Positions 5,921-37,865 of a stretch of 64,000 nt of DNA are shown piece by piece. A program made the translations under genes and the position numbers. Under the pieces are notes generated by a model. It was not told the origin of the DNA and did not search any database. It was given only the letters and a program-made list of their open reading frames with translations. The DNA comes from a virus. The stretch covers positions 1,848-65,847 of the IMG/VR virus record IMGVR_UViG_2806310403_000001. One strand, 5' to 3'. The first letter of the stretch is position 1; each line of letters opens with the position of its first letter.

Positions 5921-7108
5921 CTATCCCAGCACCGTCAATATCCTTTCACCCCATACAGTGGACGCGCCGGCCGAGGCGCGAATACCGGCGATGCTCTTGC
6001 GATGAATCTCGACAACCTGCCCGTCAGCCGTGCCAATCACATAACCGTTCTCCGCAAGCCATAGCGCCGCCTGCGACCCTCCAGCCACCTCCCCCAGCAG
6101 TTCGGCATCAAGCAATATGGCGCTCCCATACACCGGAGCCTTGGCGCCTCGTCGAAGCACCTGCAGATCGTCAGGCTGCGATCCTGAGAGAAAGAGCACA
6201 TGATCGACTTGGCCAACCCACAAGCCGCCCTCGACTGCCACCACAAAGGTGATCCGTTGCGGGAACTGCACGAAGTCATGCCGCCGATCATGGAGGTGCC
6301 ATGCCATCGGATGAGAGAACGACAGCACCCGATTCGTTGCCGTCACGAGCCTGCCCTTCCAATGTCCAAGGAATCGCCCTGCCGGCATGGCGTCCAGGTG
6401 CTGGAACTCTGGTGCCCCGCCAAGCAGTGGCATCGCCACAATGTCCACCGAGTCACCATTCACGGCGTGATCCCCGGCATGCAGCAGCACACGGCTTCCC
6501 GGTTTGGTCATGTAGAGCCTCGCCATCGTGATCGACGGATCAATGGAATATGGCATGCCGACGGTCAGCCCGCCGCCGTCTTGCAACGCGGCATAAGCGA
6601 CCTCGGACACCGAGGATTCGAGTGAGCCGCGCAGCCAAGATATGGCCACGCCATAGTCCCCTGACTCCAGCGCTCCGCCCGTCCGGACCAGCGCCGGCAT
6701 GCCTGGCGTCTCTATAGGCAGTCTTGTGGCGGCCTGACCATCGAATGTGAAAATGCCATCCACTCCAGCAACCGCCACGCGCCCATTGAGTACGCAATGG
6801 CTTGCCCAACCGCCCCCCAAGTCCGCCAGTTCGACGCAGCTCCAATCGTCGGGGTCGATTTTCACCCAAGCGGTCCCAAGCATCCCGAATAGGTCGCCGT
6901 GCAGATGGCTATACCACAGGTGCTTGTATGGCGTGCTCGTGACCATCTTGACTTGCCCGCGCATGTGCAGGCGTCCTGTATCCGTGATGTCAAAGTTGAG
7001 GGCCTCACGCACGAAAACAGTCGGATCATCCCCGCCGCGCACCAGTGCCGCGTCATCCTCTGATCGGTTGTTGATGCCGGCCAGCGGCATCAGCCTGGTA
7101 TTTGCCAT
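5921..7108 (-). CDS. Putative tail tubular/nozzle-like protein
   Basis: 395-aa beta-rich ORF with GGAG RBS in the structural operon. Confidence 0.6.
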   Translation of the reverse strand: MANTRLMPLAGINNRSEDDAALVRGGDDPTVFVREALNFDITDTGRLHMRGQVKMVTSTPYKHLWYSHLHGDLFGMLGTAWVKIDPDDWSCVELADLGGGWASHCVLNGRVAVAGVDGIFTFDGQAATRLPIETPGMPALVRTGGALESGDYGVAISWLRGSLESSVSEVAYAALQDGGGLTVGMPYSIDPSITMARLYMTKPGSRVLLHAGDHAVNGDSVDIVAMPLLGGAPEFQHLDAMPAGRFLGHWKGRLVTATNRVLSFSHPMAWHLHDRRHDFVQFPQRITFVVAVEGGLWVGQVDHVLFLSGSQPDDLQVLRRGAKAPVYGSAILLDAELLGEVAGGSQAALWLAENGYVIGTADGQVVEIHRKSIAGIRASAGASTVWGERILTVLG

Positions 7109-22000: not shown

Positions 22001-23139
22001 CTGACCCATTGCGCCTTCTGCGCGACGCTTACAAGATCCGATGGCGGCTGCATCGGCTGGCCCGCGGCAAAAGCTGCAGCGCCCATACCTTGGGGTGTTG
22101 CGGGCTGCTCGGACTCGTCGCCAGATGTGCTGCGGCGCGGGTCTATCATCCCTCGGTATCCCGCCGCGCCCGCACCCATCGCACTGCCGGTTAAGGTGCC
22201 CATCACAATGGCCGCGTCAACGTCCTCATGCCATGGCTTGTCCAGCGCGATGTTCTGCAATATCTGCTCAGAGACGGACTGCGGCAATTCTTCAAGCAGA
22301 CCTTCAGTGATCGCACCTTCAATGACCTGCCTTGAAATGCTCTTGGCTTGTTGCTGCACCAACGGATTAGCTGCCACCGCAGCAGCCTCATCCGCAAACT
22401 GCTTACGCACACCAGGAGAACCCTGCGCCACCATCGTGTCTACATCGCCGATGCCGAGGCGATTAGCCAGTCGTCCAGATGCAGCTCCAATGACACCCGT
22501 CAAAGCGCCCGTTCCAAGCGCTGCGGATGACTGTACAGGCGTCAGCAGGCCGTCATCGGTTTCTTGCCTGATCTGCTCTGCCGCGGCACCCGCTCCTGCC
22601 ACGCCTTCTCCAGCCGCGCCAGCCAGCGCGGCTCCTTTTGCCCCCATCTGACCCAAGCGCGTAGCAGTCATCAGCCCTCGCGCCGCAACACCGCCTGCGC
22701 CCATCGCGCCAAGAGACTCCCCGACTCCTTCGAGAATGATGCTAGGGTTCTCGATTGCAGCCTTCGCTTTACCAACGAACCCTTCGGCTTCGTCGAACTT
22801 TCGATGCGCCTCGCGAGACTGGTCGGACTTGATGTTCTCGTTGACGAACTGTTTCGCTTCCTTGAAACGCAAGCCTGCCTTGTCTTCCAGGAACTTGCCG
22901 GCGCGCCCGCCGGTGGGAATGTCGGCCAGGCCCACGACCAGTTCGGGGACGCTGATTGCGGCATTGAGCGCCGTTCCAGCTACGTCGCGGGCAAAGCCGG
23001 TGATGCCGCGGCCATCTGTTTCGATCCCCATCTCTGAATCTGAGAAGTACCGTTTTTGCGGCGCGGTTGACGGCGTTGAAGCGCCAATTCCCATCTCTTC
23101 ATCGCTGAAGTACTTCTTCGGAGTGTTCTGTTCGCTCAT
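13075..23139 (-). CDS. Giant polyvalent internal-virion/ejection protein (ParB-like, DUF3560-like, N6-adenine DNA methyltransferase, zincin MPTase, MuF-C/PBECR-like, PLxRFG)
   Basis: 3354 aa; motifs LKPTQ...IIDGHH (ParB-like), FFPT..LEPSAG.G and IIMNPPF (MTase), HELLH..EEALAD (zincin), YAPLSRFGRY (PLxRFG). Confidence 0.9.
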   Translation of the reverse strand: MSEQNTPKKYFSDEEMGIGASTPSTAPQKRYFSDSEMGIETDGRGITGFARDVAGTALNAAISVPELVVGLADIPTGGRAGKFLEDKAGLRFKEAKQFVNENIKSDQSREAHRKFDEAEGFVGKAKAAIENPSIILEGVGESLGAMGAGGVAARGLMTATRLGQMGAKGAALAGAAGEGVAGAGAAAEQIRQETDDGLLTPVQSSAALGTGALTGVIGAASGRLANRLGIGDVDTMVAQGSPGVRKQFADEAAAVAANPLVQQQAKSISRQVIEGAITEGLLEELPQSVSEQILQNIALDKPWHEDVDAAIVMGTLTGSAMGAGAAGYRGMIDPRRSTSGDESEQPATPQGMGAAAFAAGQPMQPPSDLVSVAQKAQWVRGWQDAAANALQLEDGNSVQPEAPQGPQGLDVGREDMTAGMTSELGAQPTLDGVDMAPREWDTGALRIADDRPLALPPPDSYTVEGDGFTTQVSRKKSEQMGLSPADGSLSAAAATAVDTGASDQVQQQAALAQAVEAAEDARPKGKQEGRKAAPEGVDAATGEVVGDPALVGMSDEQLSAAFQGAQDRSVRLQLAQELSRRRTEREEAALQAELRDELDAPDAPAGLDSGFARVSEDASAVPANINVSHGTQQPQGVPNGPQADQAIQGDPQPAQARAAQAKPEQGLTDGAALTANPGAQAAAPSSASAQAQGEGSEQRAQRLEIAGAAWTRMPAAERQELAKRIDAKPIVQRNLHSATWERLNGAIQQKLADAISPAAKEQPTDMQQFSAESGTLGVPRSVMPQVPTQSHGGLVRHLNAQGIDHETTMVDAASLKPTQAEYSPSKVQEAKTAIGDRAVIVSNDGHIIDGHHQAVAAAEDGRPVKAIVLDAPVAQALQAVKDSPSAQQMTTPEEPTAPAKKKPRGVLAKMAEAKARLASAESQASQTGATTEEEQKLGAAKADTPESAAELREPRSVPERLRARRSRVAEQERATEQAWTEKNLSERERLMKQAGVAGIFALKHAQKRWANIPQAVREKVAPMLQDDATKAFDAARADALETEQEVETNKRRSPEPAEQISMPQSKTPLTDLHVAMMERVRKGEASVEDFKKSFSQVNSQAEAIKSELAAKTKTQLLESIGPYFRARYANEKKATIIDASYREMIGEYALGQSFSYGIARDSYQKAVQRLVDAVDETRLQQFAQERKQALEESKARMAAQVEAIKNPQTLADFRSLMRHYIERGDTRQEAFMRLEPEQRIRYDELDAESTKAAREKAKANARTLGVGTAGQATTGSIVETKHTRDGYDLFVVQLGERVSREDYDTLNASAKRLGGWYSKFRGNGAVPGFQFKARELAQAFSKLVAGDAADAQAVAQARQDAFADDRSQSAVQRLRTMAQALDERAQQALDAPRKANTDRRARMAASAEAAARADKALAGTMNNLAKAIEDGRVKFLDAVRQKVQVELLARELRNAKDAQIRAKYPSYADQLKHQGEPVDAQTVDFADFPSYAAMRSDLASMARQMLEVDGLKKLGARLEKVADDVTEAYTDWAKENLSGISRFGRGDQLAEYASREAAERAIRKSGLVGRAIVLPVKRGQNRIVLAPGEAMKLGIWQGDGDKRISLSAEFGAELVQALGRRAGNKVAVPWALEASHDKRKRLEGMGIMTASEYRSALREFASLQEAMATPDKIKEMERSMIGRRDDGLDFFPTSEAVVDTMLEAAGIEPGMAVLEPSAGMGHIADAIRDKAGIEPDVVELSGERRDLLEAKGYRVVGDDFTALHPREGFTYGDVFRDTDGTLGVMRGSGGLGSERVGFQPLAADGQPDARNARWVDRDDLVGVEKRGTDSGYDRIIMNPPFSKGRDVEHVRHAYDLLRSGGRVVAIIGEGSFFRRSKAADEFRAWLDERGAVVESLPENSFMDPALPVNTAVNARLVVIEKPAGVDGSDDTAFSQSSQAVSDRMRAAAAIARDRLSAQGKRRIELQRQIEQAVQRIGRHLSVPVEVVATVADAREKYGKPGIPANIRGIAVGGKDVTLIAENLHSLAEAEFVLWHELLHIGLSRKVPKYGAAYSNMMHKLAQRNANLAQVAKEWREAFGAEMVQDLTDRGFGRVQALQRMHQLSVEEALADLAGANPNVGWIKQFLAELQRFIRNMGFSNLADWMEGATNAQALQVIAATRGAVVRQGNVSLFPQFGPAFQPSALAYSRESGPDSSIADAGRRAVGRWKASLEAAGKNAQAPEPSMLTPAVLRSMGAKASKLVLPRTYLRAILSKHPDVPEHVFENLPLLLADPLFIIPHKDGGLRVFVEAKTARSEPIAVGVSIDPGGRIHTVTPIHDHPDSTGQHRMARDVVNAKGRIYAKNNEALGKAIASARASAVAAPATFALRRDSISAASVVTREQIVKGIEAGRYGGDVAYSRASLSEIKTKALDQIHLTLSHPGKVSIWDKTVGTMRNLAERTPAFKPVFETAQRFLDDVSMLANDAADFAPRLVPRVDSLRDLAKKPVSSTDNKAVAKPLFEGTLMWGRDEDGSPALVDDLQKKYANLSAQEKGQMMLRAGRIDAGVLRMWQGLPTDRYESLIDSRFQSQVLKAGIVWSDAELKSLFKLNDQQVSLYREARAAIDRSIDVTARADMLRVLGEEFEALRDVVLDAPTLQDAMDLLTSTLHDEAKAREGESDRLMELYHAVVDRATKARELMDAGYAPLSRFGRYTVDVVDGDGERQYFGMYESKREANLAVIQMRQAFPRATIEQGTMSQEAYKLFSGITPESLELFGNMLGLSEEGGDARDKVFQEYLKLTKNNHSALKRLVHRKGIAGYSEDVGRVLSSFIYSNARQAAGGLNAGGMDKAINDIPKEQGELKDVAMGLRNYIRDPQEEGQAVRGMLFAQYLGGSVASAFVNMTQPFAVTMPWLSQYGGMHKAGAQLARALREMAGKGSYETDLANALKRAEEDGVVSPQEIHQLMAQARGTGSLRSGDGTRMGNARAAAANAWERTKVAWGQPFALAEQFNRRSTFIAAYRIAKDQKMADPAEFARQAVLETQFLYSKANKMRWARGAVGGTLMTFKTYSVSYLELMHRMWTQGGPEGKRAVAWAMAMLLLMGGAGGLPFMEDAEDLIDGAGQLMGYNISTKQWRKKALENVLGKEFAEFVDTGFSGIPGAPIDVSGRLGMGNLLPGTGLLLTKQSRERDLMEVVGPAGDLAARFFGASRKMLTGDLGGAALEMSPTAVRNAAKGADMAVSGMYKDTNGYKVIDTTLTEAISKAAGFQPRSVAQVQEANSFMQRSKSFYTQTSSEIRAQWADALFRKDDAALRRVRARLDAWNSNNPEQPIVIRMPDIWKRVREMGKDRTQRIADTSPKALRQQMQEMAREVG

Positions 23140-23146
23140 GCCCGCC

Positions 23147-23188
23147 AGCATCGCTGGGCGGGGGAGGAACGACAAACCCTATGCAGGG
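23147..23188 (-). promoter_or_regulatory. Late-promoter motif copy 2 (CCCTGCATAGGGTT-N22-GATGCT-N7-ATG)
   Basis: Directly upstream of the giant gene start 23139. Confidence 0.75.
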
Positions 23189-24266: not shown

Positions 24267-24290
24267 AAAAAAGCCCGCTCTGGGCGGGCT
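24267..24290 (-). terminator. Rho-independent terminator after the YafO-like gene
   Basis: AGCCCGC-CCAGA-GCGGGCT followed by a T-run on the minus strand. Confidence 0.8.
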
Positions 24291-24738
24291 AACAAGAGCC
24301 AAAAATAAAATCTTCAGCAAGCTTTGCATAGCAGTTCATCCTATTCCTGTCCTCCTTATTTGTCATCATCAACATGTGATGCGCGCCTGGATCATCTGCT
24401 ATATCAATCAAAAGAAACCGATTATCTCCGTCTTGCACGTAGTGCAAGTAACGATCGCTTGTCCTCTTGGACGATGCCTTTTTTTCTTGGTATCGCCTAA
24501 ATTGCAGTTCCCACGCCAACCTTTTATGAGAATCGGTCGGGATAAGATGGCAGTGGCGCAGAACGTTCGGCTGGCCATTTACAGGCGGCTTAACAGTTCC
24601 TGAATCTTTACCAAATACCAGGGACTCGCACTCTCTTGATGGATCTGACTTCCACCAAGTGAACTGCCTGACAAGTTGCGCAACAGCGTCCTTAGACAGC
24701 TTTCCTTTAAGGTCGCTTGAGACCTCCACGAAGAGCAT
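24289..24738 (-). CDS. YafO-family toxin (mRNA interferase)
   Basis: FGKD...LRHCHL...RTSDRYLHYV...FLLIDI..DPGAH matches the YafO family pattern. Confidence 0.75.
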   Translation of the reverse strand: MLFVEVSSDLKGKLSKDAVAQLVRQFTWWKSDPSRECESLVFGKDSGTVKPPVNGQPNVLRHCHLIPTDSHKRLAWELQFRRYQEKKASSKRTSDRYLHYVQDGDNRFLLIDIADDPGAHHMLMMTNKEDRNRMNCYAKLAEDFIFGSC

Positions 24739-24749
24739 AAAATCAGCCT

Positions 24750-25358
24750 TCAGGCGCGACGAACCATGAAGGAGGAAGATGCCCCCTCCATCTCATCCAT
24801 CATGCGCTCCACGCCTAACGCCGCATCTTGCCCTTGTATTTCGCTGATTTGCTCGTGCAAATAGTTAGATGGCACAGTTTCAATAACATTTAAAACTGAT
24901 GCAAATGCATATTTCAACAACTCGATATTTTTTTTAATTATCAAGAGCCCAGGTATTTTTGATTCTAACGACCTGCGAACATCACGACTAGATGAGGAAT
25001 AACGCTGAACAGCACTATCAAATTCATCTTCCAGTTCAAGCAATCTGTCGAATATAGACTCAACGGCTGGCGCAATTGTTTTTCTAGAGGGTTGATCTAG
25101 ATTTATCAGAATAACTTCCAGCTTTCTTGTTTCCCTAACCGCTTCGATCCCTTGTTCCTCAAACCTGCGTTGCACCAATGTTCCTGCCGCCCTCTCGTTG
25201 ACTCCAGATAGGAGCCCCTGCACGTATGCAGACACGGCGGTGGTGACCTCCAGCGCCTGCTCAACAGGCGAAGCCGGTCCATGATCAATCACTGCGCTCA
25301 TTTCTTTGGTCAACTTTGGTAGAGGTTCATGCTCTCTTGGATCGAGCACTAGGTTCAT
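24750..25358 (-). CDS. Alpha-helical protein, probable cognate antitoxin/partner of the YafO-like toxin (start uncertain: 25421/25358/25301)
   Basis: AT-rich ORF ending 11 nt before the toxin start; not YafN/Phd-like in size. Confidence 0.55.
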   Translation of the reverse strand: MNLVLDPREHEPLPKLTKEMSAVIDHGPASPVEQALEVTTAVSAYVQGLLSGVNERAAGTLVQRRFEEQGIEAVRETRKLEVILINLDQPSRKTIAPAVESIFDRLLELEDEFDSAVQRYSSSSRDVRRSLESKIPGLLIIKKNIELLKYAFASVLNVIETVPSNYLHEQISEIQGQDAALGVERMMDEMEGASSSFMVRRA

Positions 25359-25506
25359 GGTAGCAGGCTTGCCAAATCTACGGAACAGAGCTGGTTCATA
25401 TCCGTCAGAATCATGCAACAATTAGTCACATGCAGATATCCCTGTCACCCTTCGACCCCCTTCGCTTCGGCATCCACCTGCCCTGACGCAGGAAAGGCGG
25501 CTGCGA

Positions 25507-25708
25507 TTTCTAAGCTGCCTGTGCGGCAGTGAACCTGCGATCTCGGTTCTGGAGCACGACATCAGTTTTCTGAGCTGCCTACGCGGCAGTGAACGCCCAA
25601 ATGCGCCACGTCGTGGCAGGCTCGCTTTTCTGAGCTGCCTACGCGGCAGTGAACGTGATCTACTTGACCTCATCGAGTCCTTGATGTTTCTGAGCTGCCT
25701 GTGCGGCA
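25507..25708 (-). CRISPR. Orphan type I-F mini-CRISPR array: 3 full 28-nt repeats, 1 5'-truncated repeat, 3 spacers of 32 nt
   Basis: Repeats at 25507-25534, 25567-25594, 25627-25654, 25687-25708 read GTTCACTGCCGC(G/A)(T/C)AGGCAGCT(C/T)AGAAA on minus (Csy4/Cas6f-type); period exactly 60 nt. Confidence 0.95.
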
Positions 25709-25732
25709 ACGGGTTGCGCGTGATAGGCTCTA

Positions 25733-25760
25733 GTTCACTGCCGCACAGGCAGCTCAGAAA
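25733..25760 (+). repeat. Solitary inverted type I-F CRISPR repeat (anti-repeat)
   Basis: GTTCACTGCCGCACAGGCAGCTCAGAAA on plus strand, opposite to the array; abuts the HEPN stop codon. Confidence 0.9.
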
Positions 25761-26150
25761 TCACTGAGACCTCACAATTGCCAAGAGTCTCGCAACATCC
25801 GCCACTGCCTGACGCGCGGCGACATCATCAACGCCGCTCATCTGCAGCAGGTAATCTGCATCAACACGTCTATTCTTAAGCCCTGCCAAGACAAAGCCAA
25901 TCTTACGAGAAGCCCTCTTTTGCTCTGCAGAGCACGCTTGATCAGGGCTCTTCAATCGATCGATCAACCGCTTGTGCGTGCCTCCTGATCCGCCCTCTCT
26001 ACCAACGGCCGGCAATGACGACTCATACTGAATGGAGGCGTGGTAACCACTGTAGTAGGCACGGCTAACACTTGATCGATGCGCTGTCTCTGATGGCTGT
26101 TTCGATAGCTCGATCGCCAAATCCAAGATCGTCTCAGGCGTTGTAGACAT
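25761..26150 (-). CDS. HEPN-domain protein
   Basis: RSSVSRAYYSGYH ... THKRLI ... LKNRRVDADY is the small-HEPN signature. Confidence 0.75.
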   Translation of the reverse strand: MSTTPETILDLAIELSKQPSETAHRSSVSRAYYSGYHASIQYESSLPAVGREGGSGGTHKRLIDRLKSPDQACSAEQKRASRKIGFVLAGLKNRRVDADYLLQMSGVDDVAARQAVADVARLLAIVRSQ

Positions 26151-26909
26151 TCAGTTGATCCCTGCAAAACCGACAGTGAGCCCATCCACATCCAGGCAGC
26201 GCTCGACGATCCTGTCAGCCAACTCCCACGTCATGCTCGACGCTTCATCAACGGATGCAGTCACACGGTACTCGATGTGCAACGCTCCTTGCTGCGTGTC
26301 GTCTTCAGTGCCTGGGGGGATGATGAATTGCATCATCCCGCGCGTGCGGTGATGCCCATGCTTTTCCAGCACAACCCCTGCTTCGTCAATGAGGCGGATG
26401 ATCTGTTCGTCAGATATCTGCAGCCGGTCCAGGATGGAAACGACTTTCATAGCGACTGGAATCATGGTTGCCCCCTTGATGGCGATGTTCTCAGCCTTCG
26501 CCTGTTCTACAAATCTCAACACCGCACGATGAGCACCAACCAGCATGAGCTGTTCAACAGAACGATGCAGTGGCCTAGTTGGGTGTGGAAATACATACCT
26601 TAGCATTTCGTGTGCCTTACTTGCTTGCAAGACCCTGGCGCTGAAGAAAAATTTGCCGTAGCCTGCTTCCTGTGCATGTCCGTTGGCCTCAATGTTGCCA
26701 ATCGTCCGAATGACAGCTTCGCGGTTGCCAAGAAGGCTTTCCAGGTCACAAGTAATCAGATCCGCCGACAAGGTGTCCGTTTTCCTCAATTTCTCGATTC
26801 CCTTGCGGATCAAACGCTCCTCAAACCTACTGACCTCATCCCGTTCCTGCAATGCGGTCAGCCGCTCGGCAAGACGGTCGGTTTCGTTTTGTGGAACAGG
26901 TGAGGACAT
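26151..26909 (-). CDS. Hypothetical protein, partner of the HEPN gene (helical N-half, alpha/beta C-terminus)
   Basis: 252-aa ORF whose stop abuts the HEPN start. Confidence 0.65.
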   Translation of the reverse strand: MSSPVPQNETDRLAERLTALQERDEVSRFEERLIRKGIEKLRKTDTLSADLITCDLESLLGNREAVIRTIGNIEANGHAQEAGYGKFFFSARVLQASKAHEMLRYVFPHPTRPLHRSVEQLMLVGAHRAVLRFVEQAKAENIAIKGATMIPVAMKVVSILDRLQISDEQIIRLIDEAGVVLEKHGHHRTRGMMQFIIPPGTEDDTQQGALHIEYRVTASVDEASSMTWELADRIVERCLDVDGLTVGFAGIN

Positions 26910-26967
26910 TTGAGTTGGGGGCTGAAGGAATGTTCTATCATAAATCATGCCATACACAATTTGTTGC

Positions 26968-27825
26968 ATGAAACGCCTTCTCCTCATAGCTGCTTTTGTC
27001 GCTCCTCTTTCCGGCTTCGCTGGGTCAGGGGCCAACTACGCAGAATGCCTGCTGGAGACGATGCCGGGCACCACCAACGCGCAAGGATTCGGTGCGGGCT
27101 TGCGGCTGTGCCAGCAAGCACACCCGGATGGCTACTTTGTCATCGAGCGTGGATCAGGGAAGGGCCTGTTCGGGCCAAAGTCAGGCGATGCCTGCACGGT
27201 GGCGAAGAGCCGCGGCACAACTTGGGCGCCTGCGGCGGCCGCAATCAATCAGGCTTGTCAGTGCCTGTATAGCGATGGTCGAAGTGCGGAACTGTGCGAC
27301 AACAGCGTACGCACGGCAGCACAACTGGTTGACCCGCTTGAGCACATCAAACGCCACGGCTATGACAATGTCCGCCGCGGCTCCGGCAATGAAACCGGCA
27401 CCATGTACAGCATCAACGAGAAGGCCGAACCGCGCCGCGTCTCAGAGCTGACGCACACAATTTCCCGGCTTGACCAAGCCAAAGGGGCAGCGGAGATTTG
27501 TACCTATTTCGGCAACCAGGGCATGGCCGCGTCGGGTGCAACGTCCTTGCGTTTGGCGGCATCAGGCTACCGTGGCGATGTGATCGCATGCTCATTGCAG
27601 TACACGGCAAAATCGGGAGAAAAAAGTCCTCAGATCATCTTCTATCGTGAAAATGGGAGTGAGATGTACATGTACACCGTCACTCCCATCCGCTACCTCA
27701 CAGATGAAGAGGCAGGTTTCTCCGGTAGCGCTCAATCTGAGCAAGGGAATAGGAGGGCGAATCCGGGCAGTCAGAAGCGGTACTACACAGATGAGGAGAT
27801 GGGGATACCGCCGACGCCGCCTTAA
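26968..27825 (+). CDS. Exported Cys-rich protein (VF_A0006-like four-cysteine domain), moron
   Basis: Signal peptide MKRLLLIAAFVAPLSGFA; ANYAECLL..MPG...C...C...C.CLY. Confidence 0.7.
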   Translation: MKRLLLIAAFVAPLSGFAGSGANYAECLLETMPGTTNAQGFGAGLRLCQQAHPDGYFVIERGSGKGLFGPKSGDACTVAKSRGTTWAPAAAAINQACQCLYSDGRSAELCDNSVRTAAQLVDPLEHIKRHGYDNVRRGSGNETGTMYSINEKAEPRRVSELTHTISRLDQAKGAAEICTYFGNQGMAASGATSLRLAASGYRGDVIACSLQYTAKSGEKSPQIIFYRENGSEMYMYTVTPIRYLTDEEAGFSGSAQSEQGNRRANPGSQKRYYTDEEMGIPPTPP

Positions 27826-30032
27826 GTCAGCTCCCACCCATCACTTGTCCACCGTGCGGCCTGGCCATTTGGCATTGCGTAAATCGTCCCTATCTGTCTC
27901 TCTCCGACTCTGGCAGGCAGCTGCGCAACCGCCTGCTGCCCTCCCCCGCCCTCAACACGCTCCACCTGTCCGGTCCGCTGGTTGTAGCGGATCACACTAC
28001 CCTCGGTTGTTGATCCGTCCTGGTTCTTTGTCTGCGGCGTGACTTGCACGCGCCAATCGCTACCGTCCGCCCGGCCGAACACGTCGGGATACTGCTGCAC
28101 GAGCGACTGCCGTTCCTCTGGCGCGGCAGAGTCGTAGCGAGCGAGGATGCTGGCCCGTCGCTGAGCTTGACCGATTTCAAGATCACGCAAGCGCCCTGCA
28201 TCCGTCGCCTCCCCCTCTTTCAATGCCAATTCCCGGCTGTTGATAGCACTACGCCCACTCTCACGCATGTTCTCCGCGGAGATTTCGGCGGCTGACTGCT
28301 GAGACCGCGCCAGTCGATCGGCGTCTGCTGTGCGAGCCTCGGCACCCAGCCGCTCTGTTTGACTCTCCGCTCCAACCTGGGTGCGATAGACCTCTGCAAG
28401 CGCGGCTCGCTGCGAACGGGTCAAGCTGCTGTCATTCGAAAGTGAGTCGAGAACCCTTTTCCTCGCCGCCTGTGCGTTGCGATTCTCAGGGTCAAAGCCG
28501 AAGGCGGCCGGGGTTCTCCGACCACCCGAAGCCATAGCTGTTTGCGGCACCCCGCCGGATACCGCGCCAACTCTCTGAAGCGCGTCAATATCGCCGCGGG
28601 CCGCAGCCGCATCCTGCGCAGCCTTGACCTGCTGATATGCCGATGGTAAGCCCCGAGCGGATCCCATTGCAGAAGCGGCAACGGTGTCCACTCGACCGAA
28701 TCCGCTGCCACGGATGCCAGCACCAGGTAGAGCCTGCCCGTCTGCGCCGGTGTACGAAACCGGCCCACTCACATCCGTGCCGCTGAATGCCATACTGCCA
28801 TCAGGCTTACGCACCATCTGCACGCGACCCTGCGGGTTGTCAGCCGCGACCTGAGCGTTGGTTTTACCGGTTCGGCTGTCGGCCTCGTAGGCTACGGGAG
28901 AATTGCCCTGTGACTGCCGTGGCGCGGGGGGGGTCGGCTGCGCAAGCTCCGGCGACGCGACAGTATTCAGCGATGGATTCGCATAACGACCGGCGGTTGA
29001 GAGGCCGGAGACGCCCAAGAGCCCCTGAGACTCCGTGTTGACTCTTCCCGCGAGGCCCGTCTGTTGCGCCGCCGCTGTGCGCGTCGGCCCTGCTCCCGTC
29101 GCGTTATATGCAGGCGGAGGGGTGCTGGTCACACGCGGATTGGTCTGAGCCTCAACCTCTGGACGAAACGGCCGCACGCTTGCATTGCGCTGTCTCGGCA
29201 GCATAGCCGCACGAGCTTCTGCCGCACTCTGTGCGCCATTGGCGGAATAGTCTGCGCCCCACGCTGCCCGGCTCTGGGCGGTTTCAGCCTGCTGCTGCCG
29301 CGCCAGACCTTGCCGGTAATCGCGCTGGGTAGTTGGAGTCGTCAGACCTTGGTTGCTGCGTTCATTCTCATCAACCACGCCTCCACTGGCCAATTGCTGG
29401 CGCGGTTCATCCGGAATCCATCGGCCAGGAAAGCCACCAACGCGGCCACCATGCGCGAAGAACTGCTGCGGCTCTTTCTTTTGCTGCACGAATCGCTCAA
29501 ACCTCTCCGCATTAAAGCCAAGGCGCGGCTCTTCGGCAGGCTTTGGCGGCTTGCCAAGCCCTCGCGGCACATGCGTCTGGTCCTTCATCTGCTCAAGTGC
29601 CTTCACGCCCACGCCATGCACCTGCTCAGGCGAGAGAACATGCTCACCGTTGCTCAGTGCCACCGGCACATTCTTGCGCGGAAACAGGCCGCGCGGGCGC
29701 AAATGCTCCGGCAATTCGGGAGCTGGCGCGCGCGGCTTAGGGAACAGGCCGCGCGGCATGGCCACGCCGGGAATCTCAACAGGCGGCGGTGGCGGGCGAT
29801 TCTCAGGCGGCAATCCACGGGGCGGCTCGACGCCCATCGCGACCAGATTCTCATGACCCATCTTGTCGGTAGAGTCGGCGGGCATCACAAACGAGCCCTC
29901 GGGAAGATCGGTGCGCACGCTGTCCGAGGTACTGGTGCCGGGTCCGACAACGGGTCCGCGCTTTGGGAACAGCCCGCGCGGCTGGTGCATCTGCTCCCAC
30001 TGCTCTTGGTCTTTGATGTTAAATCCGTGCAT
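27822..30032 (-). CDS. Internal virion/ejection-type protein
   Basis: 736 aa; GPGTSTSDSV and LSNGEHVL motifs, repeated PRGLFP, low-complexity Ala/Gln. Confidence 0.65.
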   Translation of the reverse strand: MHGFNIKDQEQWEQMHQPRGLFPKRGPVVGPGTSTSDSVRTDLPEGSFVMPADSTDKMGHENLVAMGVEPPRGLPPENRPPPPPVEIPGVAMPRGLFPKPRAPAPELPEHLRPRGLFPRKNVPVALSNGEHVLSPEQVHGVGVKALEQMKDQTHVPRGLGKPPKPAEEPRLGFNAERFERFVQQKKEPQQFFAHGGRVGGFPGRWIPDEPRQQLASGGVVDENERSNQGLTTPTTQRDYRQGLARQQQAETAQSRAAWGADYSANGAQSAAEARAAMLPRQRNASVRPFRPEVEAQTNPRVTSTPPPAYNATGAGPTRTAAAQQTGLAGRVNTESQGLLGVSGLSTAGRYANPSLNTVASPELAQPTPPAPRQSQGNSPVAYEADSRTGKTNAQVAADNPQGRVQMVRKPDGSMAFSGTDVSGPVSYTGADGQALPGAGIRGSGFGRVDTVAASAMGSARGLPSAYQQVKAAQDAAAARGDIDALQRVGAVSGGVPQTAMASGGRRTPAAFGFDPENRNAQAARKRVLDSLSNDSSLTRSQRAALAEVYRTQVGAESQTERLGAEARTADADRLARSQQSAAEISAENMRESGRSAINSRELALKEGEATDAGRLRDLEIGQAQRRASILARYDSAAPEERQSLVQQYPDVFGRADGSDWRVQVTPQTKNQDGSTTEGSVIRYNQRTGQVERVEGGGGQQAVAQLPARVGERQIGTIYAMPNGQAARWTSDGWELT

Positions 30033-31741: not shown

Positions 31742-33043
31742 TTAGGCGGTGCGCTCGCCAGGGATGATCTTCACCGCCGTGTCGATCGCGATTGCGCCGT
31801 GGTCGGTGATGTGCTTGACGCCGTTGCCTTGATCCACCGCCCAGCGCACTTTGCTCGAGCCCTGGATGGCGCCGATCAGCAGTTCGCGCTTGTCGTCGTG
31901 GTCAAACGTCTTCTCTTTCCAGAAGAACGGCATGCCACCGTGGCCGCTGGCCGCGAAGGCTTGCGCAACCGCCTGGCCGCCCAGCAGGATGGCGCGATCC
32001 ACTGCGTGCGTGGTGCCAAACGAAGCTGGGACAGTCGCCACGCTTTCAGTCTCGCTGGTGAACGACGCCGCATAGCGGATTTCGTCGCCGGCGTAGAAGC
32101 GGATCGGCTTGGGCATCTTGCAGATCAGCACACCGTTCCACAGCCCCACCTCGCCCAGGAACAGCGGATGCTGCTTGGCCTTGGCTGCGCGATTCATCGC
32201 CGCGACCTGGAGCTGGCGGAATTGCGGATCAGCGGCGAACGCGTGGTACTGCGCAGGCGATACCAGCAGGCAGCGCAGCGGCGAGTCCTCGGCCACGATG
32301 TCACCGGGGATCTTCACCGCGGGCGGTGGCAGCTGGATGGATTCGATGGTGGTACGGATGCCATCCACCACGTCCATGCTCAGCACATCGGTCGTCTGCA
32401 GGCCAATCTCACCGCCGGCGACGCTGACAGGCGCCACGCCGTGCGTGCCATCGGCCAGGTAGTGGCGGTTCTTGGTCGGCGCCAGCACCGGGTTGACCAG
32501 GAATTCCGCAAACTGCGGATGGTCAGCGGTAGGTACACGCCACTCGATGCCAGTCTGGAAGCCGCGCGCGCCAGCCATGTGCACCAGTAGCGATTGATCC
32601 AGGAACGCATCCATCACGCTTTGAGCCACCGGGCGGCCCAGCTTGCGGAAATCCACCACCGAGCGCAGACCAGTCATGGTGTCGCCCAGATCCACCGGAA
32701 GACGTGCTTGGTTCACGCGGACACGCGCCTGATCGTATGTCAAACCAGTGCCCTTGCCCTCGGCCATGCGGCTGCCCATGATCGGGTATGCGCCGAACGG
32801 CTGCAAGAACTGGAACTCAACCTCGTCGCCTTTGCCGCGCGACAGGTCAACCGTTTTGACGATTGGCATGTCTGCCGTGGTCTGCTTGCGGATGGTCTCG
32901 GAGGCACCTCCTTCACCCTTGGGCAAGGTGCCAGACAGGCGACCCAACGTCGAATTGCGCTGCATGGACTGCGCGAACAGCCCTGCAGCCTGAACATACA
33001 TGGCCTTCTCGGAAGCGGCGGCCACGACGGTTTTATTGGTCAT
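31742..33043 (-). CDS. Major capsid protein, N4-gp56/DUF4043 family
   Basis: DLSRGKGDEVEFQF...G.RMAEGKG, LF.GEVGLWNGVL, RAILLGGQA, DHGAIAIDTAV. Confidence 0.85.
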   Translation of the reverse strand: MTNKTVVAAASEKAMYVQAAGLFAQSMQRNSTLGRLSGTLPKGEGGASETIRKQTTADMPIVKTVDLSRGKGDEVEFQFLQPFGAYPIMGSRMAEGKGTGLTYDQARVRVNQARLPVDLGDTMTGLRSVVDFRKLGRPVAQSVMDAFLDQSLLVHMAGARGFQTGIEWRVPTADHPQFAEFLVNPVLAPTKNRHYLADGTHGVAPVSVAGGEIGLQTTDVLSMDVVDGIRTTIESIQLPPPAVKIPGDIVAEDSPLRCLLVSPAQYHAFAADPQFRQLQVAAMNRAAKAKQHPLFLGEVGLWNGVLICKMPKPIRFYAGDEIRYAASFTSETESVATVPASFGTTHAVDRAILLGGQAVAQAFAASGHGGMPFFWKEKTFDHDDKRELLIGAIQGSSKVRWAVDQGNGVKHITDHGAIAIDTAVKIIPGERTA

Positions 33044-33104
33044 GATGACCTCCTTCAATTGGATTGCGTGGGCGACTCATCAAAAAGTGGCCCGGTTGAT
33101 TTGG

Positions 33105-34259: not shown

Positions 34260-34301
34260 AGTGTTTAGCGGTCGGCTTGAAACTCAAAACCCTATACGGG
34301 G
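34260..34301 (-). promoter_or_regulatory. Late-promoter motif copy 5 (CCCCGTATAGGGTT-N22-AACACT), with a ~150-nt leader
   Basis: Same motif and spacing, upstream of scaffold/capsid. Confidence 0.75.
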
Positions 34302-36547
34302 TCGGCCGCGATGTTGTCCTCAATCCGCTGCGTTTCGATCCCATCCATGCCCCGCCCTGGCTCTTGCGGCACCGGCGGGAATGCTGGGCTGGTGTTCTGC
34401 GGAACATCTGCGGCCGCGCCGCCAAGTCCAGACTGCGGTTCCAGCGGCGCGGCCGCAGGCACCGGGAAATCCGGGTCATCTCCATCCGGCGTCGGTCTCT
34501 GGTAGCCACTGGACTGCATGATGACGTCAGCGATAGGCGCGATCATCGGCATCTGCGCGATCTGTGCGCCGGCCTGCATGGCGCTGTAGCTGGCCTGCAC
34601 ACCGGTCTGCACCTGTTGGGCGGCCATCAACTTCTCGCGCGCGGCAATCTCACGCTCTCGCAGAGCCAGTTCACGCTCCTTCAAGTCGTGCATCAGTTCC
34701 TGCTTGACCTGCTCCCTGATCTGCTCAGGGTCAGCTTGCGCTGTCGCCTGCTGGATCGCCTGCACAACCTGCTCTTTGCGCGGCAGGTCCATCAAATCGA
34801 CCATGAACGGCATCATCACCTGTTGCACGGTAGGCGGCAACGCCTTGACCGCCTCGCTCAGCGCGTTCAGTTGCTGCGCTCGGAACCCGCTCGATGACGG
34901 AACATCCTCCAGCGCAACCATCAGCTTCGTGCGATTGATGTCGTTGCTCAGGTACTCAATGCCTGTCTGCGGATCCACCTCGGGATGGTTAATGACCACG
35001 GTGCGTGGCGGGTCGAGCACGTCGCCTTCGATCACAATGACCTGCTCTTGCTTGCCCATGTCTTCGATGATCAGCGCCATCAGCAACTCGCCCACCAGCG
35101 TACGGCTGTCCTTGAACCCATCCATCAGGTCGGCCAGCGAGATTTCCGACTGCTCAAGCTGTGTCTGCTCCTGCAAACCGCTCGTCGCAGTGCCCTTCTG
35201 CCCCTGGAACGACGCCGTGATGCCCGAGACGCGCTGCACCGCCTCGCGACTGTCCGTCATCAACTGGAACTGCTGGGCGTTGAGCTGGAAGTCTCGGTGC
35301 ACCTCGAACCGCGCGCCCTGCTTGGCCATGTGCTGTTCATCCAACACGATGTCCGCACTGGCGCGGGCAATCTGCTGGCGGAACTGCGCATCACTCATCG
35401 CCACCGCACCCTTGGTTCGCTCCGTACGCACCGATGCCATACCCCAGCGCAGCTTGGCAGTCGTCGCATTCAGGTTGTCCTGCGGAAAAATCATGTCCCG
35501 CACCAACCCATACGGGATGCCGGTCATGTCCTCGCGGTAACCCCAAACCGGCACGTAGGGGAAATGCTGGTGCGAGTACGGGGTCGGGCCGTCATGCAGG
35601 CAGTGCGGCCCAATCCAGAACGCCCGGCGCATGCGCGCAACGATCTGCTCCTGCAACCTGCCGCGCCCAATCGCCAGCGCAGCTTGGTGCAACTCATTGG
35701 CTTCGTCAAACTCGACCGCCCGGCCATCGCGCATCACCAACATCACAACCGGAACCCAGCGGCGATACCAAACCTCGGTTATTGCGACTGTCTGATTTTC
35801 CTCGTTGTACCAGTTGTCCTCGTGAACCGTCCAGGCGCGCTCAGCCTCTGCGGCTGCCAGCAGGCCAGTGGACTGGCCGCCCTCCAGCATCTCGCCCACG
35901 TTATCCGCAATCCACTTATCCATCGACCGCATGATCACGTCGCGATGCCCAGGGAACAACTGCGCCGCTTTTGTACGATCCACCCAACGGCGGCGGTAGA
36001 GCCAGCGCGCATCGGCAAGGTCTGGCTCCTGGCACTTCATGTCCCACCAGATTTCGTTGCGGTGGATATAGCGGCAACGAAAAGGAAACTCCAGCGAATT
36101 AGGAGGGCGCGCCACTTCAACCCAGCCCAACCCCACTGTCACTGCAGCGCGAAACGCCTGCGACAGCGCTCGATCTGCTTTCGAGTGGCGCTCGGCTTGA
36201 TTGAGGCGGAAATTGATCGCGTCCGCCACATCCTGGCCACCCGGCTCGCCATCAGGTGTCACGCGCCAATCCGTGCGCGTTTTCGCCTCATAGCCGCACA
36301 CCGCGGCGATTGCAGGTGTGATGATGTTCTCCTTGGCTGGCGGGATGCCCAGCTCGGCCTGCTTTCTCAGCAGGTCGGTCGATAGCTGGTTGCCGTCGGC
36401 GTAGTCCGCTTCCTTGTCCGCATTCACGCGCCAGGGTGGCTGGTTGATCGCCTCGCGCACGATGGCGGCGAACTCGTTGAGCGTTAATGGCGTGTCTGCG
36501 CCATCCTGTACCTCATGTTCATCAAGGATGTTGGTTGTCATGTCCAT
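34292..36547 (-). CDS. Portal protein
   Basis: ~750 aa after TerL; DYADGNQ, HFPYVPVWGYR...PYGLVRDM.PQD.LN. Confidence 0.85.
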   Translation of the reverse strand: MDMTTNILDEHEVQDGADTPLTLNEFAAIVREAINQPPWRVNADKEADYADGNQLSTDLLRKQAELGIPPAKENIITPAIAAVCGYEAKTRTDWRVTPDGEPGGQDVADAINFRLNQAERHSKADRALSQAFRAAVTVGLGWVEVARPPNSLEFPFRCRYIHRNEIWWDMKCQEPDLADARWLYRRRWVDRTKAAQLFPGHRDVIMRSMDKWIADNVGEMLEGGQSTGLLAAAEAERAWTVHEDNWYNEENQTVAITEVWYRRWVPVVMLVMRDGRAVEFDEANELHQAALAIGRGRLQEQIVARMRRAFWIGPHCLHDGPTPYSHQHFPYVPVWGYREDMTGIPYGLVRDMIFPQDNLNATTAKLRWGMASVRTERTKGAVAMSDAQFRQQIARASADIVLDEQHMAKQGARFEVHRDFQLNAQQFQLMTDSREAVQRVSGITASFQGQKGTATSGLQEQTQLEQSEISLADLMDGFKDSRTLVGELLMALIIEDMGKQEQVIVIEGDVLDPPRTVVINHPEVDPQTGIEYLSNDINRTKLMVALEDVPSSSGFRAQQLNALSEAVKALPPTVQQVMMPFMVDLMDLPRKEQVVQAIQQATAQADPEQIREQVKQELMHDLKERELALREREIAAREKLMAAQQVQTGVQASYSAMQAGAQIAQMPMIAPIADVIMQSSGYQRPTPDGDDPDFPVPAAAPLEPQSGLGGAAADVPQNTSPAFPPVPQEPGRGMDGIETQRIEDNIAADPV

Positions 36548-36554
36548 GGTTGCC

Positions 36555-37865
36555 TCACATGCGCCAGTCGTCAGGCGGCGGTGGTTCGTAGGTATGCGTT
36601 GTCGGGGCCTCATGCGCCACAGCCATCAGCCCAAAAGCATCTGCCCCGTGTGACGCCCAGTCGTGGTTCGGGCCAAGGCCAATACCTCGGTTCTGATCCC
36701 GCTTCTCGTGATACCAACCCAGCGCTGCGCGACCAGGTTCGGTGGCAACCTCGTCGAACCACATACTTGGGAACAGCCTGCGCGCCGCCTCGATGCGCTG
36801 TTTTGCTGCGCCAGCGCCTTGGTTTGGCACCGTCGTCACCGTGTAACCTGCAGCCTGAAAAGCGCCTTCAAACGTCATTGGTTGAATGCGGTCATGCGTC
36901 AATCCATCATGGGGCAACCAGATTTGCAGCCTGTCTGGCGTGTAGCCTCGCTCGCGCATCCACTCAAGGTGCGTAGCCAGGGGCTGGCCAACTGCCTCGT
37001 AGTAATCGAGCACGCGGATTTGCAAGCCCACAAACTGCGCAATCCAGACAGCAAACGCATCTGCCCGCGCCCCAGTTCCGCCCAGGTCGATGAAGCCTCG
37101 CAACGCCATCAACGGGTCGGCGGTGACAGCACCAATGCGCCCTTGCTCCTTTGCCTTGGCAAGATACTTGGCGTAGTAGGCCCCCTCAAGCACCGTGGCG
37201 TACTCGCCATCCCAAACATGCGGATACTGCTCCGGCCGCTCTTCCATATCGCGCTGGCGCGCGCGCTCAAGGATCGCAGGAAAGCGCGGGTTGTCGCGCC
37301 AGTTCAGCTCCACTACCTTTGTTCTCGGATCTTTGGTTGCGCGAAAACGCTTTTCTACTGGTGCAGTACGCCGTAGTGGGTTCCATGTAACCCACAGCTC
37401 TGCACTCCAATCGTCACCTTCTTCTCGCAGCGTTGGAATCAACGTTGACCACGCTAAATCGGTGACGGGCTCTGCCTCATCAACCCAGCACAGAAGGATG
37501 CGGCCTTTCGATTTGATGCTGGCAATGTTTCGATCCAGGCCAGCAAACGCAAAGCTGATCCGCCCATCGCGGCTTTTGATGTACTTGTCTCCGATCTCGT
37601 AGTACGCCGCCAGGAACGGTTCATCCTCGATCGCACGCTTGCACTCCTCTAAAGATGAATCCTCCAGGGAGTTCATAAATTGTCGCGCACACACCAGAAT
37701 TCCCTTGATTCCGCGCTGGCCGAACCGATACCCAGCGACAGCCACCATCTTTGCGAAACTTCGCGTCTTAGCGCTTCCGCGACCGCCATAGGCGCCACGG
37801 AAGTCTGCCTCACCCTCGAAAACAGGGATCAGCTTTGCTGGCAGCGTGATCTTCACCTTGCTCAT
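36555..37865 (-). CDS. terL: Terminase large subunit (PBSX/Terminase_3-type)
   Basis: YGGRGSAKT Walker A, CWVDEAE Walker B, DLG and HDWASHGADAF nuclease motifs. Confidence 0.92.
   Translation of the reverse strand: MSKVKITLPAKLIPVFEGEADFRGAYGGRGSAKTRSFAKMVAVAGYRFGQRGIKGILVCARQFMNSLEDSSLEECKRAIEDEPFLAAYYEIGDKYIKSRDGRISFAFAGLDRNIASIKSKGRILLCWVDEAEPVTDLAWSTLIPTLREEGDDWSAELWVTWNPLRRTAPVEKRFRATKDPRTKVVELNWRDNPRFPAILERARQRDMEERPEQYPHVWDGEYATVLEGAYYAKYLAKAKEQGRIGAVTADPLMALRGFIDLGGTGARADAFAVWIAQFVGLQIRVLDYYEAVGQPLATHLEWMRERGYTPDRLQIWLPHDGLTHDRIQPMTFEGAFQAAGYTVTTVPNQGAGAAKQRIEAARRLFPSMWFDEVATEPGRAALGWYHEKRDQNRGIGLGPNHDWASHGADAFGLMAVAHEAPTTHTYEPPPPDDWRM

Follow-up and report, generated by a model that had tools for sequence, protein, structure and literature searches.

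A prophage segment in which a CRISPR array lies in line between two toxin-type gene pairs raises the question of whether these parts work together or were merely stacked. The segment belongs to a 64,000-nt stretch of viral DNA, analysed as a whole and called here the window. On the minus strand a 252-aa ORF, a 129-aa ORF, the array, a 223-aa ORF, a 149-aa ORF and a terminator-like hairpin follow each other. The original prediction had given this co-oriented order correctly, as the ORF listing and the hairpin with its T-run confirm, and had read it as a possible prophage defence cassette, in which host Cas6f might supply crRNAs and at once control two toxins, for instance as a tripwire. The features are the following.

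26151-26909, minus strand: HEPN partner gene (252 aa), encoding a helical-repeat (TPR/PPR-like) domain and a small alpha/beta domain
25761-26150, minus strand: HEPN-like gene (129 aa), presumed toxin/effector of the upstream pair
25733-25760, plus strand: inverted complete I-F repeat (solitary repeat unit), abutting the HEPN stop codon at 25761-25763
25715-25732, no strand: 18-nt linker from the degenerate first repeat to the inverted repeat
25507-25714, minus strand: type I-F mini-CRISPR array, made up of 3 complete repeats (28 nt), one degenerate repeat at its head and 3 spacers (32 nt)
25687-25714, minus strand: degenerate first repeat of the array, 22 nt kept
25655-25686, 25595-25626 and 25535-25566, minus strand: spacers of the prophage array, 32 nt each
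25627-25654, 25567-25594 and 25507-25534, minus strand: full repeats of the mini-array, 28 nt each
24750-25421, minus strand: all-helical ORFan located upstream of YafO as its partner (223 aa with a TTG start)
24289-24738, minus strand: YafO-family toxin gene (149 aa), Pfam PF13957
24272-24290, minus strand: terminator-like hairpin, a 7-pair stem with 6 G-C pairs, then the T-run TTTTTGCGCC

Repeat search and Rfam both returned the predicted I-F array, whose three 32-nt spacers lie precisely at the predicted positions. Four direct repeat copies are found at 60-nt spacing (25506-25535, 25566-25595, 25626-25655 and 25686-25715), and a further copy, at 25733-25762, pairs with them in inverted orientation; over 22 nt the pairing is perfect between 25687-25708 and 25739-25760. 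The period is 60, 60 and 60 nt, and the three spacers are mutually unrelated. With up to 3 mismatches allowed, the window contains 4 copies of the 28-nt repeat, versus 0 in 100 shuffles. All four full copies are assigned to CRISPR-DR4 at 43-50 bits (gathering score 35), and fit the I-F class for the stem CTGCC-N5-GGCAG and the handle ending in AGAAA. The first repeat departs from the regular array that had been described, being degenerate. Its 5' end is truncated; the 5' handle is preserved, and so is the greater part of the stem-loop, which is closed by a U-G pair. The sequence originally noted as an inverted repeat is present, but is actually a complete canonical I-F repeat on the other strand, with 0 mismatches to GTTCACTGCCGCACAGGCAGCTCAGAAA and 47.5 bits on CRISPR-DR4; the HEPN stop does abut it. 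The leader is missing, as had been noted: the motif TTCTTTAAAAATCAA, seen in 4 of 9 printed first-repeat upstream stretches and, in a loose version, at the mini-array of a related prophage (genome G118), is absent near 25715-25800. A consensus scan gave no promoter-like site for the array. Because there is no leader, the presumed transcription of the array would probably be by read-through, coming either from the HEPN pair or from the late operon of the phage.

The array had been called an orphan. The window is indeed devoid of cas genes, but contig C3 of the same genome hosts a complete I-F operon (cas1, cas2-3, csy1-3 and cas6f) and a 17-repeat array. Cas6f is encoded on C3 only, at C3:262663-263214 (E 1.2e-60); Cas1, Cas2-3 and Csy1-3 were identified by Pfam. 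The host array is a run of 17 copies of GTGACCTGCCGCACAGGCAGCTCAGAAA, the last two being variants. Host and prophage repeats differ solely at positions 3, 4 and 6 (25/28 identical), and have in common the stem CTGCC/GGCAG and the 8-nt handle CTCAGAAA. The check that had been proposed, for a host csy/cas6f locus with a matching repeat, was thereby positive, and the idea that the mini-array borrows host Cascade fits a complete host system sharing stem and handle. The host I-F locus includes also a CreA/CreT-like module, located between cas2-3 and csy1.

The explanation preferred here, to which we assign a probability of roughly 0.55, is that of a phage-borne, cas-less mini-array that borrows host Cas6f and Csy proteins, and is stacked by chance with two toxin-antitoxin-type morons. 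Host Cas6f would cut each stem, yielding three 60-nt crRNAs, each with the host handle CUCAGAAA. The three guide units would be loaded on the host Csy complex, and would steer interference against elements not yet sequenced, most likely competing mobile elements. The degenerate first repeat would retain just what the first crRNA requires. Viral mini-arrays use host Cas proteins against related viruses, and most of their spacers match related viruses, according to PMC11656645. The prophage array resembles those described there for being a cas-less, few-spacer array in a (pro)virus, with repeats fitting the host type and a cas operon in the host. Unlike them, it has no leader, a degenerate first repeat and an inverted copy 18 nt upstream; its repeats are 25/28 identical to those of the host, not fully; and its spacers have no related-virus match among the searches made.

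The targets that had been expected in IMG/VR, phages and host were not found. No protospacer for the three spacers was detected in the own genome, in 50,697 phage records (INPHARED), where two chance-level matches were obtained (E 0.9 and 3), or in all the fetched loci. IMG/VR, searched with 23-nt motifs, contained no match to the three spacers, and metagenome contigs, searched with spacers A and C, none to these two. No protospacer was found in 400 family genomes, where matches could hide among repeat matches in array-bearing genomes. Family genomes with one, two or few (G118) matches were rechecked in 15 of 16 cases (all but G395), and featured solitary repeats or chance matches only. The best family-genome match, 24/27 nt in spacer B (E 0.011 per genome), is discounted because it is expected among 400 genomes. 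All these searches demanded near-identity, and are consequently a weak test for related-virus matches. A 15/16 seed match of spacer C with a CC PAM, in a BLUF-domain gene (C1:1112489), was considered as a target and taken as chance; about 0.02 such matches are expected by our own estimate. The lack of a protospacer for any spacer, of a leader and of a promoter-like site all speak against the borrowing of host Cas proteins. So does the antisense repeat just upstream, which would sequester the first repeat in read-through RNA.

The missing targets would suit also a relic, that is an array frozen and possibly silent, under no selection as a CRISPR element, and we regard this as unlikely. The first repeat is 5'-truncated and the leader is gone, and the array therefore cannot acquire new spacers. 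The repeats are moreover a mosaic of two variants, both of which are chromosomal repeats in other genera. The two middle ones are identical to the chromosomal repeat of loci L012 and L013, from two other genera; at seven loci of relatives the chromosomal repeat is identical to the middle and inverted repeats, and the last repeat is 1 base off. The last 11 nt of the plus-strand linker (GATAGGCTCTA), preceding the inverted repeat, look like the point where leader and repeat meet in the G118 mini-array, and now face the wrong way. As part of the same reading, and similarly unlikely, the inverted repeat would mark a repeat-homology recombination that brought the HEPN pair alongside. The G118 mini-array lies in a genome with no Cas6f, indicating that such mini-arrays are not always usable where they sit, a point that counts also against the preferred reading. 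A decayed array, however, is at odds with the intact stem, the host-type 5' handle and the exact 32-nt spacers of all three units. Nothing is missing from the degenerate repeat but what a first repeat can do without, the host has a matching complete I-F system, and a related prophage has a second mini-array at this hotspot, which suggests retention of such arrays. The palindrome might also be thought to derive from a simple inversion with its ends in the first and in the solitary repeat, but this origin is rejected, as the observed order does not result from it.

The solitary repeat calls attention to anti-CRISPR uses of CRISPR parts. Array and/or inverted repeat might act against the host I-F system, as decoy crRNAs competing for Cas, as a plus-strand Racr-type RNA, or as Cracr-type guides silencing cas/creT promoters, all possible modes of an explanation that we deem conceivable, yet rather doubtful. 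Racrs are RNA anti-CRISPRs derived from solitary repeat units, such as RacrIF1; solitary I-F prophage repeats inhibit I-F, and a non-targeting crRNA also lowered interference (PMC10651486). By definition, a Racr is a repeat standing alone in a mobile element, preceded by a promoter at no more than 250 bp and expressed as a small RNA. The repeat at 25733-25760 resembles Racrs for being a single perfect plus-strand I-F prophage repeat with no second repeat after it. It differs from them for lying 18 nt from an opposite-strand mini-array, antisense to a gene 3' end, with no clear promoter or terminator. In favour of a Racr-type RNA, a -10-like TAGGCT with TG (TGATAGGCT) was read by eye 3 nt ahead of the plus-strand repeat; against it, the consensus scan, which missed this site, gave no promoter, and no terminator follows the repeat. 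The same 28-nt repeat is found in the G118 prophage 20 nt behind an HTH gene, which may be of the Aca type, as in anti-CRISPR loci, and this association also favours an anti-CRISPR role. Identical solitary repeats, however, are found in ordinary chromosomal gaps of genomes without Cas6f, which means that a lone repeat can be a relic.

Cracr arrays, known for I-F systems (bioRxiv 10.1101/2024.10.29.618823), and prophage regulatory mini-arrays mimic CreA/CreR (bioRxiv 10.1101/2024.10.29.618823; 10.1101/2023.03.03.530964). The likeness to Cracr is in a multi-spacer I-F prophage array and a host I-F locus with a CreA/CreT-like module, a module that the phage might need silenced. In contrast to what is described there for Cracr and regulatory mini-arrays, the prophage spacers are full-length, canonical 32-nt units, not shortened, only the first repeat is degenerate, and no PAM-proximal match to cas/creT promoters was found in 31 I-F loci. 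In the host cas locus no spacer has at least 9 PAM-proximal matches above chance, and none a match with a CC PAM; across the host locus and 30 relatives' csy1 loci, 0-1 matches per spacer were counted versus shuffled means of 0.6-1.8. The spacers show no CreA-like complementarity either to the window or to the host cas locus, nor are they similar to the pseudo-spacers of 9 modules of this kind. The prophage, in turn, is not matched by the host's 16 spacers, and 387 spacers from the arrays of the host and its relatives gave only 14-19-nt chance matches; I-F pressure on the prophage is hence not evident. These spacer data argue against an anti-CRISPR function.

The gene pairs flanking the array were analysed in turn. 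The stop codon of the 252-aa partner adjoins the HEPN start. The partner was modelled at pLDDT 87 and pTM 0.84, and a fold search gave no PDB match at E <= 0.001, the best rows being designed PPR proteins (E 0.05). Of the two toxin assignments in the original prediction, YafO passes the Pfam threshold, but the 129-aa protein has no Pfam match of its own, and is HEPN-like only by its match to phrog_5176 (E 6.8e-20) and by profile-profile comparison (PF05168-type, hhalign 97.5%, E 7e-12). One relative scores 23.1 bits on the HEPN Pfam profile (cut-off 22), and distant relatives located beside MNT genes match the HEPN profile at E 5e-20 to 2.5e-9. Residues R25, S29, R30, Y32, Y33, H59, L88, R95 and Y100 are invariant in 8 relatives. 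The HEPN RNase motif is Rx4-6H. It is not found in the 129-aa protein, which has a conserved C-terminal R-x4-Y (RVDADY) and the invariant H59 elsewhere, and for this reason RNase activity is not implied; PF05168-type relatives in A2 share the same R...DY.

The YafO protein matches PF13957 (E 9.4e-9, 35.7 bits versus a cut-off of 25) and phrog_1651 (E 2.7e-10), and is a distant family member, as the NCBIfam YafO equivalog score is 17 versus a cut-off of 153. Among 401 genomes of the class only 2 have the gene, one of them being the own genome. A YafN-type antitoxin is expected upstream of YafO. The gene found there has no family match in Pfam, PADLOC, NCBIfam or PHROGs, and its product (p223; 202 aa from the ATG at 25358 in the public protein set) retrieved only itself among 5.8 billion proteins. 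The p223 model is all-helical (pLDDT 65), with no usable look-alike in the ESM Atlas, and an antitoxin role is presumed from position. None of the four cassette proteins was matched by PADLOC. Both pairs, presumed toxin-antitoxin units, recall HEPN-MNT and YafN-YafO type II/VII systems for having two translationally close genes, the second belonging to a toxin family (PF05168, PF13957); they differ because the partners are neither MNT nor YafN, but a helical-repeat plus alpha/beta protein and a helical ORFan.

Could the pairs and the array be a single unit? HEPN pair, array and YafO pair would be transcribed together, in this order, Cas6f cutting or crRNA-guided Csy binding would set toxin levels, and loss or inhibition of Cas would fire the toxins. 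We consider this very unlikely, in spite of several features that invite it. The parts are co-oriented, and no minus-strand terminator-like site is found between 26909 and 24290; the hairpin at 24290-24272, the only such site between 23600 and 28000, closes the gene string. The array has neither leader nor promoter-like site of its own, the HEPN stop abuts the repeat, and in a read-through RNA the gene pairs would be separated by four Cas6f sites and a 25-bp hairpin. The CreA/CreT-like module of the host is moreover itself a CRISPR-repressed toxin of the CreTA type. CreTA (PMC10097628; bioRxiv 10.64898/2026.06.02.729485) is a CRISPR-repressed toxin-antitoxin of I-F loci; its toxin CreT, a small RNA, is encoded within the cas locus and kept off by complementarity between spacer and promoter. 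The tripwire shares with CreTA the idea of a toxin held down by Cas with a repeat-derived RNA; it departs from it in that the prophage toxins are proteins with their own partners, and no spacer complementarity was found in the window, where seed matches with a CC PAM are not beyond chance.

Comparison with other genomes argues against such a unit. A failure of homologous HEPN and YafO pairs to co-occur with repeats had been named beforehand as a refuting outcome, and for HEPN this is the outcome obtained: of 17 and 80 HEPN-homologue loci, 0 and 0 (0/97 in total) have I-F repeats, YafO or a homologue of p223. A co-oriented upstream partner ORF is instead kept in 77 of 80 loci, and is therefore part, with HEPN, of a self-contained module; 45 of these 77 ORFs match the partner profile. 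The HEPN gene and its TPR-like partner are thus a widespread two-gene module, independent of CRISPR repeats elsewhere. Single-protein context searches for HEPN and p223 in IMG/VR gave no hits. Each toxin already has its own adjoining partner gene, and the three modules are unlike in G+C (0.53, 0.57 and 0.47; 0.464 for the YafO gene and 0.467 for the p223 gene). With 0/97 loci, unlike G+C and no spacer complementarity, the integrated tripwire originally proposed is unsupported.

Stacking of independent cargo agrees with the surroundings. Terminase, portal, major head and other structural genes identified by PHROGs, all on the minus strand, surround the array, and the element sits in a low-GC cargo hotspot of this region: G+C is 0.46-0.57 in the cassette versus 0.62-0.64 in the flanking phage genes, and GC3 0.44-0.58 versus 0.65-0.79. 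A giant-protein gene is present in 6/380 family genomes. In G280 the gap corresponding to the hotspot is filled by 8.5 kb of other cargo (helicase, transposase, UmuDC and an HTH_66+PIN_10 pair), in G265 it measures about 1 kb, and in G118 the hotspot holds the mini-array with its own leader, and quite different neighbours. Related prophages hence host here a mini-array or toxin-type pairs next to other neighbours, a further point against an integrated cassette, and the hotspot being variable, the HEPN and YafO pairs are likely to have no more than a neighbour's relation to the array, as cargo of the toxin-antitoxin type.

The inverted repeat at 25733-25760 would be present in a minus-strand RNA as an antisense copy, for which pairing with the first repeat is predicted (-49.2 kcal/mol, z -8.6), and the long hairpin formed by an inverted full repeat and a first repeat is without precedent in the material examined. 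The antisense repeat behind the HEPN stop might be a cis 'anti-repeat', which in a read-through transcript would form a 25-33 bp duplex with the first repeat, or else with the last, so that the entire array is enclosed. The same RNA would then be contested by host Cas6f and a double-strand RNase, tying the fate of the toxin-operon mRNA and the phage crRNA output to free Cas6f. We hold this to be extremely improbable; if true, the anti-repeat would be a prophage sensor of the host CRISPR state.

For a prophage CRISPR array set between toxin genes, the simplest reading is independent cargo stacked at a hotspot, a matter that a comparison of homologous loci settles quickly. If the array borrows the host proteins, as we favour, the prophage exemplifies a trick already known from phages, rather than a new system. 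Few type I-F phage mini-arrays are documented in a lysogen that has both a matching cas operon and a CreA/CreT-like safeguard, and the strain would be a convenient natural system for the loading of a prophage array on host Csy, and for the use made of it.

The prophage carries a type I-F mini-array, of a kind already known, that fits the complete I-F system of the host; stacked with it in a cargo hotspot are two toxin-antitoxin-type pairs, likely independent of the array. Three 32-nt spacers (A, B and C) separate minus-strand repeats in the 25507-25714 interval, with a period of exactly 60 nt. A complete repeat in opposite orientation lies nearby:

25507-25534, 25567-25594, 25627-25654, minus strand: full 28-nt repeats
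25687-25714, minus strand: degenerate repeat copy, of which only the final 22 nt are kept, TGCCGCACAGGCAGCTCAGAAA
25733-25760, plus strand: complete inverted repeat, 18 nt from the degenerate repeat

The inverted repeat abuts the TGA of the ORF encoding a 129-aa HEPN-like protein (25761-26150). Allowing up to 3 mismatches, 4 repeat copies were found in the window, and none in 100 dinucleotide-preserving shuffles; the four full copies are recognized as CRISPR-DR4 in Rfam (43-50 bits, gathering score 35). The degenerate first repeat has a stem closed by a U-G pair; what it has lost lies entirely upstream of this stem and is dispensable for the first crRNA. Coordinates and gene order in the original prediction were correct on recheck, as were the absence of a leader and the presence of a terminator, located at 24290-24272.

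The same prediction regarded the array as orphan, which it is not. The window corresponds to G000:C1:966828-1030827, and contig C3 of the same genome encodes Cas6f (PF09618, E 1.2e-60), Cas1, a Cas2-3 fusion, Csy1, Csy2 and Csy3, and carries a run of 17 repeat copies, GTGACCTGCCGCACAGGCAGCTCAGAAA, the final two being variants. The host I-F locus with a matching repeat that the original prediction proposed to look for is present, stem and handle being common to both. Prophage and host repeats differ at positions 3, 4 and 6, and the loop is also altered in two prophage copies (GCGTA versus GCACA in the host). The 5-bp stem is identical, and the 8-nt handle CTCAGAAA is that of the host in every prophage repeat able to give a 5' handle. 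Cas6f/Csy4 binds the repeat stem-loop and cleaves at its 3' base, and host Cas6f should hence cleave the prophage repeats. The mini-array would be transcribed, its transcript processed by Cas6f, and the guides loaded on Csy, presumably in an anti-competitor role.

The host I-F locus features, in the gap between cas2-3 and csy1 (L010 6677-7110, contig C3), a CreA/CreR-like mini-array:

L010 6702-6781, minus strand: CreA/CreR-like unit, two degenerate repeats with a 26-nt pseudo-spacer between them

A tiny ORF (MRRKRKRRR, L010 7002-7031), preceded by a Shine-Dalgarno-like GGAGG, is found about 220 nt from the unit. The module looks like a CRISPR-repressed toxin or a cas regulator. A strict pattern detected a similar single repeat in 9 of 30 csy1 loci of relatives; several have compensatory stem changes, and a second degenerate repeat lies behind 8 of the 9. 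The last spacer of the host array matches G000:C3:173425-173456 with 4 mismatches over 32 nt, possibly a case of partial self-targeting of another element.

PHROGs matches place the mini-array within a prophage, the structural genes of which, as listed here, are all on the minus strand:

36555-37865, minus strand: terminase
34292-36613, minus strand: portal
31742-33058, minus strand: major head protein
13075-23175, minus strand: giant ORF of 3366 aa, in the structural region
5921-7108, minus strand: head closure protein

Relatives of the giant protein have open frames of 874 to 4604 aa. The cassette lies in the gap that separates a 736-aa gene (27822-30032) from the giant gene, and fills it partly. 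Its G+C content is 0.46-0.57 versus 0.62-0.64 in the flanking phage genes, its GC3 0.44-0.58 versus 0.65-0.79, and single modules vary (YafO pair 0.46-0.47, array 0.57, HEPN pair 0.53-0.54). Between cassette and 736-aa gene, the opposite strand carries an ORF of 292 aa (26947-27825, plus). The N-terminus of its product (MKRLLLIAAFVAPLSGFAGSG...) is lipoprotein-like, and the ORF has no family match.

The original prediction suggested that array, HEPN pair and YafO pair may form one cassette controlled by host Cas6f, for example as a tripwire. The 129-aa protein has no Pfam match, matches phrog_5176 (E 6.8e-20), and aligned with seven relatives fits three PF05168 HEPN proteins, which adjoin nucleotidyltransferase genes, at 97.5% probability. 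The signature of HEPN RNases is Rx4-6H. Since the motif conserved in this protein and its relatives is R-x4-Y, RNase activity should not be assumed. Its 252-aa partner is modelled (pLDDT 87) with a helical-repeat domain and, behind it, a small alpha/beta domain; no similar solved structure was found at E <= 0.001. Within the class, 12 of 400 genomes, the own one among them, have homologues of phrog_5176. No I-F repeat was found within 1.5 kb of the 17 HEPN loci in the other 11 genomes, the one chance-like match lacking the handle. A four-sequence HEPN alignment, searched against 185,579 species genomes, identified 118 relatives; 80 loci were retained for comparison. Up to 4 kb away from these loci there are no YafO or p223 homologues (p223 being the partner encoded upstream of YafO), and no I-F-like or CRISPR-like periodic repeats, except a 3-mismatch string without stem and a 49-bp tandem at a contig end. 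In 77 of the 80 loci a co-oriented ORF ends no more than 60 nt from the start of the HEPN gene, and 45 of the 77 match the partner profile. The HEPN pair is thus a widespread, self-contained module, and the predicted co-occurrence of HEPN, repeats and YafO is contradicted on the HEPN side, to which the comparison applies, YafO relatives being too few. The 149-aa YafO protein scores above the Pfam threshold and has three relatives besides itself in a large protein set; in the class, phrog_1651 (YafO) was found in 2 of 401 genomes, one being the own genome. p223 (223 aa, 202 in the public set) has neither relative nor family in the searches made, and is predicted, with modest model confidence, to be all-helical.

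Guide-based regulation was sought first in the window, where spacer matches had to have a CC PAM and no more than a single mismatch in the seed. These matches did not exceed the chance level seen in the rest of the genome; in the host cas locus, and in 30 csy1 loci of I-F-bearing relatives (Csy1 is present in 35 of 37 genomes searched), the spacers scored at or below shuffled controls. A CreA-like or Cracr-like role of the spacers is consequently without support. The integrated tripwire, too, is without support. Cracr RNAs are described as shorter than ordinary crRNAs (bioRxiv 10.1101/2024.10.29.618823), whereas the prophage spacers are full length.

Protospacers, which the original prediction proposed to seek in IMG/VR, prophages and host, were not found by near-identity searches of the own genome, family genomes (15 of the 16 with few matches were rechecked), phage records, the loci fetched, IMG/VR and, for spacers A and C, metagenome contigs. 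This is the chief weakness of the best explanation, an anti-competitor array. Spacers of viral mini-arrays mostly match related viruses, according to the review PMC11656645. Over its 16 leading nucleotides, spacer C agrees at 15 with a site that has a CC PAM and lies inside a host BLUF-domain gene (G000:C1:1112489-1112520), probably by chance (an estimated 0.02 such matches are expected).

The inverted repeat may be a recombination scar, a Racr-type RNA or a cis anti-repeat, none being preferred. Folding of the minus-strand RNA predicts a duplex between its antisense copy and the degenerate first repeat (-49.2 kcal/mol, z -8.6); when a longer stretch is folded, the last repeat becomes the pairing partner, so that the array is enclosed (-137.9 kcal/mol, z -6.7). 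None of 11 array loci fetched from relatives has an opposite-strand repeat. On the plus strand, the 11 nt upstream of the inverted repeat are similar to the junction of leader and repeat in the mini-array of a relative, G118. Solitary I-F repeats, one near-perfect and one perfect, reside in chromosomal gaps of G118 (L050 7172-7199) and of a further relative, G069 (L051 4587-4614), one near lysyl-tRNA synthetase and LysE genes, the other near LytB, Fic and chemotaxis genes. Since these gaps are ordinary and Cas6f was found in neither genome, lone repeats can plausibly be relics.

A search with the first 400 residues of the giant protein identified related prophages in 6 of 380 other family genomes. 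The comparison drew on five stretches, taken from four of the six genomes, and on the G118 region. In G280, of the same genus, the homologous gap (L134 1200-9700) hosts 8.5 kb of different cargo (DEAD/ResIII helicase, rve transposase, UmuD/UmuC, HTH_66+PIN_10 pair), and no I-F repeat was found there. In G265 the gap spans about 1 kb. In G118 (L049) a mini-array with three repeats, plus a terminal copy that is degenerate, lies about 8 kb past the giant gene, and has its own leader with a loose copy of a motif common to 4 of the 9 upstream stretches of first repeats printed. A solitary perfect repeat, identical to the inverted copy in the window, is found 2017 nt away on the other strand, 20 nt behind an HTH_3 gene preceded by a 340-aa gene without family (L049 10758-12417). 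This block, divergent from the mini-array, is similar in layout to anti-CRISPR loci with Racr. Mini-arrays thus recur at this prophage hotspot, each with other neighbours.
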